Source of the DNA: a virus
Lineage: Duplodnaviria; Heunggongvirae; Uroviricota; Caudoviricetes
Virus record (IMG/VR): IMGVR_UViG_2778261171_000002
Length of the DNA: 18,784 nt
Strand: one strand, 5' to 3'
In this document: in pieces, positions 25-3,278 of the stretch
How positions within the stretch are numbered: the first letter of the stretch is position 1
Layout of the letters: each line of letters starts with the position of its first letter
Notes under the pieces: model-generated
The model's database searches: none
What the model saw: only the letters and a program-made list of their open reading frames with translations
Told to the model about the DNA's origin: nothing
Translations under genes and position numbers: made by a program

Positions 25-357
25 TTACCCGAAATCTGATTTATTCAACAAAGCCACTTCCCCGTCAACACAGACTTTCAGCTCACCATATGTCGGGTGG
101 ACAAGCGTGCCGGGACCGGGTTTATTCAGCGCTTCAATCAGGCGATCGCGCTGGTCAAAGCAGTCATCTCCCACCACATAAGCTGTGATGGACGGGCGGA
201 AAGTGACTTTTCCCAGATCTTCGGTATAGGGCTTGTCGCGGTTCGGGTATTCATGTGTTTCCACACGGCGACCGGTTCCCGCACTTTCTTCTTCAACCTT
301 AAACGGCACACCTCGAAATGACGCATCCTGAAGCCTGTCTTTCCACGTCATATACAC
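25..357 (-). CDS. Mu gpN-like DNA circulation protein, N-terminal domain only (110 aa; possibly truncated)
   Basis: N-terminus MxxTWKDRLQDASFRGVPFKVE resembles the DNA-circulation N-terminal domain of Mu-like tails; in-frame stop at 25-27 although family members are usually 400-500 aa; track start is GTG, ATG two codons downstream. Confidence 0.45.
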   Translation of the reverse strand: MYMTWKDRLQDASFRGVPFKVEEESAGTGRRVETHEYPNRDKPYTEDLGKVTFRPSITAYVVGDDCFDQRDRLIEALNKPGPGTLVHPTYGELKVCVDGEVALLNKSDFG

Positions 358-412: not shown

Positions 413-943
413 TTAGCGAGTCAGAAACAACGAATCTTTATACTTTTGCTGTTGTTCATTTAAATACTTAGCTGTTTCATCGCTGGCAAATGGAAATATT
501 ACCGTATTTTTAGGCATGGTAATTTCTTTTTTGTCCAGCGTCAGAGTAAACATAGGAACATACTGAGCAGAGTAACGCACCGCAGAAACGAGCTCTAGTT
601 TAGACTCTTCAATAACACTTAAATTATCCAGGCTAACTTTCTCTTCATCTTTTTTCTTTGACGCATTTAAAGTTTTTATTACTTTATTTAATTTCTCCTG
701 AAAATCCTCCTTAAAGTTTTCAGGATTGCCGTCGACAACAAGAATCTGTTCACCCTGATTATCTGGAAAAATAATCTTTGCACTTATCAATTTATTTTCT
801 TTATAAACATCACCAAGTTTTATGGCTCCTCCAGATAACTGAATAATATGTTCATCTTTAAAGGAGATGTTGCCAGAGATTATGAGAGATGAAAAAATAG
901 CCGCTGCTCCAAGAATTACACTTGCTGTGATATAGCCTTTCAT
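413..943 (-). CDS. Hypothetical membrane-anchored or secreted protein (176 aa) in an AT-rich moron
   Basis: ATG start; hydrophobic N-terminal segment (ITASVILGAAAIFSSLIISG) then a K/E/D/N-rich domain; local GC far below the flanking tail genes; own terminator. Confidence 0.65.
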   Translation of the reverse strand: MKGYITASVILGAAAIFSSLIISGNISFKDEHIIQLSGGAIKLGDVYKENKLISAKIIFPDNQGEQILVVDGNPENFKEDFQEKLNKVIKTLNASKKKDEEKVSLDNLSVIEESKLELVSAVRYSAQYVPMFTLTLDKKEITMPKNTVIFPFASDETAKYLNEQQQKYKDSLFLTR

Positions 944-1034: not shown

Positions 1035-2867
1035 CTACCAAAATCGGGTATAGCCAACATCGTGATTTATATCAATGCCACTGGAGCGTGTTTCCGTAAC
1101 CCGCATACCTGGTGGCATATTTATAAATGATACCTTGATCTCACCATCAACTTTTGGCGCGGTAGCTTTATTAATCATGAAGGGATTCGAGCCTGTGGCA
1201 TCGGAGGCGTTGTTTGCCTGAGCCGGATCCACCGCCGGATAAGGAGTGTATCCCCGTGCCGGTATTCCCGTCCCATAAGCATCATAAGCACCCGCGCCCC
1301 ACTGCGCAGAGTTAATGGCATCGACCGTGTCACCGGAACTGTCGGTAAACCACTCAATAATTGGCTTCAGCTTGTCCCACATATCCTGAAACCACTTAAC
1401 AACCGGCCCCCAGTTATTGATCACCATCCCCATCGGCGACCAGGCAAAAACTTTCTTAAGGAGTTCCCAGCCAGCCTCAAAATAAGGACCAATGGTTTCC
1501 CAGAGCTTCTTGAAATAAGGTCCGACAACATCCCAGTTAGTGATAATTAATCCCGCAGCCAGGGCTATCGCCGTCGCAATCATGCCAATCGGCGTCATCG
1601 ACATGATCCTGCTGACAATGCTGATGGCACTGCCCACGCCCATCAATCCCAGTTTCAGAATCGCAAGACCGGCAGCAAGCCCGACGACGCCGCGAATAAC
1701 CCGGGGATTTTCATCCGCAAACTTCGTGAATTTTTCCCCCAACTCCCCCAGCCATTGCGTGATATTTTTAGCGTCACCAGAAAATGCGCCGCCAATAGCC
1801 GCAAGGCCGTTAGTTGCGGTCCCTGTCATTGCCTCCCACAGGTTGGACAGCGTACCAAGCTGTGCCTGAACACGTTTATTCAGGCTGGCCTGTTTATTCA
1901 TCTTCTGCTGGATCTGATCGTAGCCATCCTTTCCTTTATCGATTAGTGCATTGACCACCTGAAGGGTTTCGGCATCATCACCAAATATTGCCTTAAGTAC
2001 ACCGGTTCGCTTAACGTCGGTCAGTTTTCGCAGCTTTGCCAGTTGCCCGAACATGTTATCAAGACCGCCAAAACTCCCTTTGCCATCAGTAAAATCGAGC
2101 TGTACCCCGAGTTTCTGGCGGGCCATGATTTTATTGACGTCCCTGATTTTCTTAACGCTTAATCCGGACTGGATAACTTTTCGCAGGGCATTACCTGCCG
2201 ACTCCCCGTTCATCCCCATCTGATCCATCATGACACTGATGGGGGCAAGACTCTGTGCAGCCTGAAGACCGTCCTTATTCACCATCTTCAGAACAGAGCT
2301 GGTTTTAGTGAAGAATGACAGCATGTTGGTGTCGTCAACGCCCAGATAAAACGCCTTCTGAATTGTGTCGAACAGCCCCATCATGTCTTCTGAGGCCGTT
2401 CCGGTAGCATCCTGCATCTTTGCGGCAAACTCGGCAGCCGCTTCCGGTGTTTTTTTCAGTTGTACCGCAAGATAAGCTGTCGCTTTACCCACACCACCCA
2501 GAATGTTTTCTGCCGGGATCCCCTGACGCACCAGCATCTGCATCATGTTCTGGAAATCAGCCGTTGTACCGGGTAGCTGGTTACCCAGGCCAATAGCCAG
2601 TTTATTGATGTCCTGAAAGCTCTTTCCAACCTCGCCGTTCGCATCCATCATGGCGACTTTCAGCCCGGTAGCGGCGTTTTCCTGATCGGCATAAGATTTC
2701 AGGGAAAGCGTCAGCCCCGCTGCCAATCCGCCACCAAGCGCCAGCCCACCCTGTGACGCCTCTTCCGCCTGGCGTTTAAATCCCCGGATTTTCTTTTGCA
2801 TTTTCGACAGCGCGGGAGAAAGCCTGTCGACACCGGTGATCAACGCCTTAAGCTCAAATTCAGCCAT
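1035..2867 (-). CDS. Tail tape measure protein (610 aa)
   Basis: Located directly after tube and chaperone genes; long Ala/Gly/Leu/Gln-rich protein with a central hydrophobic segment typical of tape measure proteins; ATG start. Confidence 0.8.
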   Translation of the reverse strand: MAEFELKALITGVDRLSPALSKMQKKIRGFKRQAEEASQGGLALGGGLAAGLTLSLKSYADQENAATGLKVAMMDANGEVGKSFQDINKLAIGLGNQLPGTTADFQNMMQMLVRQGIPAENILGGVGKATAYLAVQLKKTPEAAAEFAAKMQDATGTASEDMMGLFDTIQKAFYLGVDDTNMLSFFTKTSSVLKMVNKDGLQAAQSLAPISVMMDQMGMNGESAGNALRKVIQSGLSVKKIRDVNKIMARQKLGVQLDFTDGKGSFGGLDNMFGQLAKLRKLTDVKRTGVLKAIFGDDAETLQVVNALIDKGKDGYDQIQQKMNKQASLNKRVQAQLGTLSNLWEAMTGTATNGLAAIGGAFSGDAKNITQWLGELGEKFTKFADENPRVIRGVVGLAAGLAILKLGLMGVGSAISIVSRIMSMTPIGMIATAIALAAGLIITNWDVVGPYFKKLWETIGPYFEAGWELLKKVFAWSPMGMVINNWGPVVKWFQDMWDKLKPIIEWFTDSSGDTVDAINSAQWGAGAYDAYGTGIPARGYTPYPAVDPAQANNASDATGSNPFMINKATAPKVDGEIKVSFINMPPGMRVTETRSSGIDINHDVGYTRFW

Positions 2868-3027
2868 GTGTGCGTTTCTCCTGCTCTATCCTGTTTGCCT
2901 GACTGACCAGCAAGGGAATTTCACTGATCGGCATATTCAGCAATTCGAAGGGATTAATGCGCCAGTAGCTGGCGCAGTCAAAGAAGCGATCAGTGAGGTA
3001 TTCAGCCGTCAGGCCTGGAGGAAAAAA
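2860..3027 (-). CDS. Frameshift extension of the tail chaperone (E'/GT-like), reached by -1 slippage at T_TTT_TTC
   Basis: Slippery heptamer TTTTTTC at minus-strand 3027..3021, just before the chaperone stop; the -1 frame stays open (FFPPGLTAEYL...) to a stop at 2860-2862 beside the tape measure ATG. Confidence 0.55.
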   Translation of the reverse strand, partial: FFPPGLTAEYLTDRFFDCASYWRINPFELLNMPISEIPLLVSQANRIEQEKRTHG

Positions 3028-3278
3028 CCAGCCACAAGCCACGCCGCTGCATTCAGGTCTGCCGGAGACATCTGGTCGACAGAGCTTTGCGGCACTTTCG
3101 CCAGCCGCACAATGTATTTCGACACCACATGCGCCAGAAGTCTGACGGACTCATCCTGATTCATCTGGTAGGGATACCCCAGCTCGCGGACATCCTTCCC
3201 GGTGGGTTCATCAAACTCCAGTACGGAGAGTGTCTCACCATGAGCGATAATCGGTTTCTTTAACTCAAGCTCTTTCAT
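3009..3278 (-). CDS. Tail assembly chaperone (P2 gpE / lambda G analogue, 89 aa)
   Basis: Small ORF between tube and tape measure genes; overlapped at its 3' end by a -1 frame ORF that runs up to the tape measure start. Confidence 0.7.
   Translation of the reverse strand: MKELELKKPIIAHGETLSVLEFDEPTGKDVRELGYPYQMNQDESVRLLAHVVSKYIVRLAKVPQSSVDQMSPADLNAAAWLVAGFFLQA

Follow-up and report, generated by a model that had tools for sequence, protein, structure and literature searches.

The tail assembly chaperone gene of an SfV/SfII-like prophage very probably contains a programmed −1 ribosomal frameshift site, as judged from the gene itself and its relatives. This is how the site was read in the first-pass annotation of the DNA, and the reading is supported by a conserved heptamer, a −1 frame extension that ends at the start of the tape-measure gene, and a protein-coding signature in the −1 frame.

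The stretch of DNA that was analysed, here called the window, is 18,784 nucleotides long (IMG/VR record IMGVR_UViG_2778261171_000002). It comes from an SfV/SfII-like E. coli/Shigella prophage whose tail module is contractile and Mu-like, and the window segment shows 98-99.5% identity to Escherichia phage vB_EcoM-689R6 as well as to the Shigella phages SfII, SfV, and SfI. The sheath, tube, chaperone, and tape-measure genes form one tight block, all on the minus strand (Table 1). The chaperone gene lies between the PF10618 tube gene and the PF10145 tape-measure gene, downstream of the sheath gene, in agreement with the earlier assignment of the region to a tail module. The stop codon of the tube gene and the ATG of the chaperone gene overlap in the sequence TAATG, and the tape-measure gene is preceded by the Shine-Dalgarno sequence AGGAG at 2882..2878. 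No promoter-like sites were found inside the block on either strand, and no terminator-like sites on the gene strand; the lone terminator-like match in the block is on the opposite strand and is within the number expected from shuffles.

Table 1. Coordinates of the tail genes and of the frameshift features in the window.
Feature	Coordinates	Strand	Characteristics
Tail sheath gene, 498 aa	3634..5130	-	PF04984, PF17482, PF17481; phrog_165; start of the sheath-tube-chaperone-tape measure block
Tail tube gene, 118 aa	3278..3634	-	PF10618 Tail_tube, E = 2.4e-33; phrog_185
Tail assembly chaperone, 0-frame product, 89 aa	3009..3278	-	PF10109 Phage_TAC_7, E = 2.4e-15; phrog_166
Slippery heptamer T_TTT_TTC	3021..3027	-	In phase for tandem −1 slippage
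−1 frame extension, 53 codons + TGA 2862..2860	2860..3021	-	Conserved peptide; third-position variability in the −1 frame
Tail tape-measure gene, 610 aa	1035..2867	-	PF10145, E = 1.7e-26; phrog_28, phrog_17727

The slip site and the predicted fusion protein

Two overlapping ORFs are found between the tube gene and the tape-measure gene. This is the layout of the G/GT-type tail assembly chaperone frameshift of long-tailed phages, which was reportedly described by Xu, Hendrix and Duda in 2004. The 0-frame product (3278..3009) is the analogue of lambda gpG and P2 gpE. It matches PF10109, a family that Pfam names 'Phage tail assembly chaperone proteins, E, or 41 or 14', with residues 4-86 aligned to profile positions 2-78 (56.7 bits, the cut-off being 25), and its RefSeq label is 'phage tail assembly protein'. 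The chaperone, the extension, and the fusion are all without a match in NCBIfam. A PDB sequence search gave no significant match for the chaperone profile, and only chance-level ones (E of 0.08 or worse) for the extension profile.

On the minus strand the 3' end of the chaperone ORF reads GTG GCT GGT TTT TTC CTC CAG GCC TGA, with the stop at 3011..3009. An 89-aa chaperone ORF ending at 3009 and the sequence TTTTTTC at 3027..3021 had both been reported earlier, and both are borne out. The distance of six codons from heptamer to stop given at the same time is right only for the GGT codon that supplies the first T, TTT being the fifth codon before TGA. Three sense codons separate T_TTT_TTC from the 0-frame stop. 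With respect to the 0 frame the heptamer has the phase X_XXY_YYZ (GG-T TTT TTC), and T_TTT_TTC at 3027..3021 is thus a slippery heptamer of the kind seen in G/GT-type frameshifts. Both U_UUU_UUC and U_UUU_UUU are among the efficient H_HH.U_UU.Y frameshift motifs in E. coli reporters (PMC4066793).

In the −1 frame the next codon after a slip is CCT at 3021, and 53 codons (PPGLTAEYLTDRFFDCASYWRINPFELLNMPISEIPLLVSQANRIEQEKRTHG) are read before the TGA at 2862..2860. The earlier annotation had correctly found this frame open to 2860-2862, but had placed its end next to the tape-measure ATG (2867..2865), while the stop in fact overlaps the start by 8 nt (ATGGCTGA). The predicted fusion has 86 + 53 = 139 aa, close to the 140 aa or so that had been proposed, and its CDS would be complement(join(2860..3021,3021..3278)). 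The junction is predicted to read …AGFF-PPGL…, in a peptide containing WLVAGFFPPGLTAEY.

According to the model, most ribosomes would translate GGU UUU UUC CUC CAG GCC, terminate at UGA, and yield the 89-aa chaperone. On a smaller share of them, the two tRNA-Phe in the P- and A-sites on UUU UUC would slip back one base onto U_UUU_UU, where both could pair with UUU, so that cognate or wobble pairing would be kept. Translation would then resume at CCU (3021) in the −1 frame and add 53 residues, giving the 139-aa fusion, with its end within the beginning of the tape-measure gene. If lambda G/GT and P2 E/E+E' are taken as models, the short form and the N-terminal part common to both products may bind the tape-measure protein, while the C-terminal part encoded in the −1 frame may recruit the tube protein, and the frequency of slipping would set the ratio between the short and the long product. 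Neither chaperone product is found in the virion in systems of the lambda/P2 type (PMC5009743).

Conservation of the site and the rival explanations

A single heptamer constitutes weak evidence, since in-phase X_XXY_YYZ heptamers are not rare in the window: there are 17 in about 5,800 ORF codons, or around one per 340 codons. Two of these 17 are followed by 53 or more open codons in the −1 frame, and a third by 48. Conservation among homologues had been named as a check on the original reading, and both the slippery site and the open −1 frame are kept in the relatives.

Phage relatives were found by tblastn on phage records. Counting the window, this set comprises eleven loci, in which the identity of the chaperone to that of the window is 27-79%; it includes SfIV, ST64B, phiP27, Yersinia YeP1, Pantoea AH07, and Edwardsiella EPP-1, as well as Burkholderia BgVeeders33, a Pseudomonas DVM-2008 element, and Stutzerimonas PG1. 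In seven divergent phages (SfIV, ST64B, phiP27, YeP1, BgVeeders33, DVM-2008, and PG1) the chaperone identity is only 27-48%. All eleven loci carry an in-phase T_TTT_TTN at the homologous Gly/x-Phe-Phe motif, followed by a −1 extension of 52-63 aa that stops from 3 nt before to 10 nt after the tape-measure start; the 0-frame tails past the heptamer vary from 3 to 23 codons and are not conserved. A scan of viral contigs with the chaperone returned 80 loci that were all 100% identical, and was of no use for conservation.

For the bacterial loci one genome was taken per bacterial species, and the search was anchored on the more conserved tube protein, the identity of which goes down to 41%. This gave 80 loci. 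The chaperone domain and the extension peptide were located independently of each other by profile HMMs on three-frame translations, and both profiles match 79 of the 80 loci. Of these 79, 77 have the extension in the −1 frame, together with an in-phase slippery heptamer within the stretch that is open in both frames. In nearly all of the 72 loci where it could be called, the −1 stop is within a few bases of the start of the downstream long ORF; in three of them it lies about 25-32 nt past that start. No stretch of 7-10 residues is conserved in the chaperone alignment. As the architecture is conserved across the relatives, the site is far beyond what chance would give.

The two loci in which the frame differs (L143 and L144) have 1-nt indels and come from insect-symbiont genomes; the slip site is still present in both. 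The chaperone gene of L143, from an Arsenophonus endosymbiont, has an extra G in a G-run, while that of L144, from Candidatus Pantoea bathycoeliae, lacks one G immediately ahead of the T-run. Both are probably pseudogenes in symbiont prophages undergoing decay, or else homopolymer assembly errors.

Nucleotide diversity was calculated pairwise by codon position for 14 distinct close relatives. Upstream of the heptamer the diversity at the three positions of the 0-frame codons is 0.17/0.10/0.52, and downstream it is 0.22/0.14/0.42 when the codons are taken in the −1 frame. The three-base periodicity thus changes register at the heptamer, which indicates that the −1 frame is under protein-coding selection from there on. 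Synonymous sites vary strongly (diversity 0.5-0.8) up to position −3 and are then invariant through the heptamer. The heptamer is the same in all 14, its three synonymous positions included, whereas the neighbouring wobble sites vary freely.

The 80 non-redundant relatives, which range from Enterobacterales to Burkholderiales and Pseudomonas, all have an in-phase heptamer at the homologous place. T_TTT_TTC is the most common (42 of 80), followed by T_TTT_TTT (28); T_TTT_TTG is found in two. C_CCA_AAG is present in seven members, from Gilliamella and Schmidhempelia (L132-L137 and L139), and C_CCT_TTG in a single one from Rhodoferax (L158). In 80 of 80 members, the codon before the heptamer ends in a wobble base identical to X. 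At T-heptamers this base is T whichever of seven amino acids (Gly, Ser, Asn, Arg, Pro, Val, and His) the codon specifies. Where the amino acid is glycine, T-heptamers are always preceded by GGT (52 of 52) and C_CCA_AAG always by GGC (5 of 5), while GGT makes up only 32% of the glycine codons elsewhere in the chaperone genes. The relatives with C_CCA_AAG or C_CCT_TTG represent a natural swap of the heptamer at the same place, with the preceding wobble base switched to C, and this covariation supports slippage by the ribosome.

The fusion would also be made if RNA polymerase added one U on the T6 run, such that some of the mRNAs encoded it in a single frame. The site is indeed a homopolymer run, with T6 in the window, T7 in 28 relatives and, counting the preceding T, T8 in one. 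One inserted U yields the same protein as a −1 slip, and sequence alone cannot separate slippage of the polymerase from that of the ribosome. However, the C_CCA_AAG or C_CCT_TTG found in eight relatives contains no long homopolymer, and these are classical ribosomal slip sites. Moreover, none of the runs departs from X_XXY_YYZ phase, and X and the wobble base covary, which argues against the polymerase, since phase and covariation are needed for re-pairing in the P-site only. For transcriptional slippage a long homopolymer would be the sole requirement, irrespective of phase, and the run in the window is only T6. Productive transcriptional slippage in E. coli generally needs runs of more than six. 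We consider this explanation very unlikely, and infer from the features above that it is the ribosome that slips.

The −1 ORF could alternatively be a small gene of its own. A GTG-initiated ORF of 60 aa (3042..2860) does appear in the ORF listing, it has been annotated as a 'hypothetical protein' in one phage record (ON470584) and in a few NCBI entries, and PHROGs has a corresponding family, phrog_32181. Yet there is no ATG, GTG, or TTG before the conserved −1 peptide in 58 of 81 sequences (80 relatives and P2), and where a start exists no Shine-Dalgarno match reaches −6 kcal/mol; the GTG at 3042 in the window scores +0.4 and has no Shine-Dalgarno sequence. The downstream ORF is thus without an initiation signal of its own and would be expressed only as a fusion, as in G/GT-type systems. 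When the 53-aa extension was used as a query, only 11 short 'hypothetical' fragments were found among 5.8 billion predicted proteins, which means that gene callers almost never find this ORF. An independent gene is accordingly highly improbable.

That the heptamer and the open frame are accidental, or that the chaperone gene has been broken by a frameshift mutation, would fit the frequency of in-phase heptamers and open −1 frames in the window given above, but can practically be dismissed: 77 of 79 loci, from several orders of Proteobacteria, retain the architecture, the −1 peptide is under purifying selection and the synonymous sites of the heptamer are fixed, the true pseudogenes of the symbionts differ in having their indels elsewhere in the gene, and the relatives are not recent copies of one sequence (chaperone 27-48%, tube down to 41% identity).

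Known frameshift systems and the search for a stimulator

The closest analogue of the ribosomal frameshift proposed here is found in P2, where the −1 frameshift that gives gpE and gpE+E' is experimentally established (Christie et al. 2002, as cited in PMC3091744). The site is annotated in NC_001895 as GGT TTT TTG on Gly-Phe-Leu. A likeness to P2 E/E' had been suggested by the first-pass annotation and is apt: the N-terminal domain is PF10109 in both (47.8 bits for P2 E), and the heptamers, T_TTT_TTG in P2 and T_TTT_TTC here, span a Gly-Phe-(Phe/Leu) motif that occupies the same positions of the profile, position 78 being the A-site codon in both (L85 in P2 and F86 here). Both sites are located between the tube and tape-measure genes of a contractile-tail operon. 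The product sizes are 91 and 142 aa in P2 against 89 and 139 aa in the window, and the stop of the fusion overlaps the ATG of the tape-measure gene (gene T in P2) by 8 nt in both, with the sequence ATGAGTAA in P2 and ATGGCTGA in the window.

There are also differences. The similarity between the two chaperones is below BLASTP detection, and the rest of the tail module in the window is Mu/SfV-like rather than P2-like. Four diverse extensions gave no match to PF06528 (Phage_P2_GpE) at E up to 10, while P2 E+E' matches with 1.2e-21. A weak collinear similarity between the extension and P2 E' was found by hhalign (E = 0.003, probability 10%), and a 75-sequence profile gave 10.8 bits, a score reached by 1 of 2000 shuffles. 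This is suggestive only of homology to P2 E'. Since there is no PF06528 match and only the weak collinear similarity, the extension is not filed in the E' family. The site therefore appears to work like that of P2 E/E+E' and has the same family of N-terminal domain, but without an extension that is recognised as belonging to the E' family.

The gpG/gpGT pair of lambda follows the same logic, with overlapping ORFs just upstream of the tape-measure gene and a −1 slip near the end of the first ORF. As summarised in PMC5009743 from Levin et al. 1993 and from Xu, Hendrix, and Duda (2004, 2013, 2014), lambda makes a short and a long chaperone in a fixed ratio, and neither is found in the virion. Unlike the prophage, lambda has a G_GGA_AAG heptamer and a non-contractile tail, and no sequence similarity to lambda G or T was detected for the proteins of the window. 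The surrounding module is like that of Mu (sheath L, tube M, tape measure, and DNA-circulation protein N). Mu gp41, however, is 144 aa long and belongs to PF23746, which is not matched by the 89-aa chaperone of the window; it also touches PF10109, just below the cut-off. A −2 shift is reported for Mu gp41, whereas the extension here is in the −1 frame (77 of 79 relatives), and P2 rather than Mu is for this reason the right analogue. Tandem slippage on an X_XXY_YYZ heptamer is further known from dnaX and from the IS3/IS911 family, and U_UUU_UUC is used by some IS elements as well (PMC4066793). The dnaX and IS3/IS911 sites have a Shine-Dalgarno-like element upstream, a hairpin or pseudoknot downstream, or both, and neither kind of element is conserved here.

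A search for a downstream stem-loop or pseudoknot had been proposed along with the site, and no conserved structure of either kind was found across 81 sequences (P2 included). The 55 nt that start 3 nt after the heptamer have a mean z of −0.53 in the family (81 sequences), while control windows have −0.38 and −0.47; in the sequences identical to the window, the z of this region is +0.2 to +0.3. Also the P2-like phages are without a recognised downstream structure (PMC3091744). The difference for an upstream Shine-Dalgarno-like stimulator is not significant (median −2.7 vs −2.2 kcal/mol, p = 0.08), and nothing in Rfam comes near the gathering score.

Two candidate structures were rejected. The 131 nt after the slip site fold with z = −3.05, but this signal is made up of a hairpin 44 nt downstream and of long-range pairs, the latter being broken in 3-5 of 12 close relatives. 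The hairpin, UGCGCCAG-CUA-CUGGCGCA (2976..2958, minus strand, 44 nt 3' of the heptamer), is strong and GC-paired. It is invariant in the close clade, where it falls inside the conserved codons C-A-S-Y-W-R, and degraded in distant relatives. Its distance from the slip site is too large for a stimulator of frameshifting.

In an E. coli reporter UUUUUUC gives 0.12% frameshifting without a stimulator (supplement of PMC4066793), and this rises to 0.89% when the IS911 stimulator is present and to 7.6% when the IS3 pseudoknot is (PMC4066793). Since the heptamer alone shifts so seldom, the frequency at the present site could be low, barring an unrecognised context effect. It is unlikely that the percent-level efficiency reported for the chaperones of lambda and P2 is reached here without a canonical stimulator; if it were, this would imply an unrecognised effect in cis. 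Two candidate elements may be pointed out, the first being CUCCAGGCCUGAC, a block 3' of the heptamer that hardly varies within the close clade. The second is an 8-bp complementarity, including one G-U pair, that is seen in the consensus fold of this clade between UUUUUCCU (3026..3019) in the slip region and AGGAGAAA (2882..2875). AGGAGAAA, some 140 nt further downstream, is where the tape-measure gene has its Shine-Dalgarno region. Such a pairing could link frameshifting, or translation of the chaperone, to initiation of the tape-measure gene. Both segments are invariant in the close clade, and covariation therefore speaks neither for nor against the pairing. CCUCC is absent from other clades.

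Annotation of the locus and its significance

The chaperone locus is found in 917 of 5,426 complete E. coli genomes (about 17%), as well as in SfV, SfII, SfI, and related phages. Every public record inspected, phage records and RefSeq alike, lacks an annotation of the fusion CDS. A 141-nt 'intergenic' gap is instead seen at window positions 2868-3008 in RefSeq E. coli (NZ_CP012376.1 2411204-2411344), SfV, SfII, SfI, AH07, and EPP-1, while the separate 60-aa hypothetical protein called in ON470584 is spurious. Nor was the fusion protein found among the 5.8 billion predicted proteins that were searched with the 53-aa extension. No description of the SfV-group site was found in searches of the open-access literature. 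The site is very probably an unannotated example of the known tail-chaperone frameshift, and SfV may already have been listed in the survey by Xu, Hendrix, and Duda from 2004.

Some features to the left of the tape-measure gene deviate from the related phages. An AT-rich island at 380-1035 (GC 0.31-0.39, compared with about 0.53 around it) lies between the tape-measure and DNA-circulation genes. It contains an ORF of 176 aa (943..413, minus strand) with a hydrophobic N-terminus, no Pfam match, and a match to phrog_5485, a family of unknown function. The phage matches to positions 1-1100 cover only 56-378, and the island is thus absent at this place from SfV, SfII, SfI, 689R6, and SKA5; it looks like a moron insertion. 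The DNA-circulation ORF (Mu N-like; 25-357, minus strand) has only 110 aa and contains the N-terminal domain PF07157. Its similarity to phage N genes stops at position 56, and a truncation or replacement of the gene at the left window edge is possible.

The understanding of tail assembly is left unchanged by the SfV-group site. Its main value is for annotation, where the predicted 139-aa fusion has been systematically omitted. The natural series of swapped heptamers with a covarying wobble base would be useful for the training of frameshift predictors, and the site bears on the question of how tail-chaperone sites without recognisable stimulators set their frameshift ratio.
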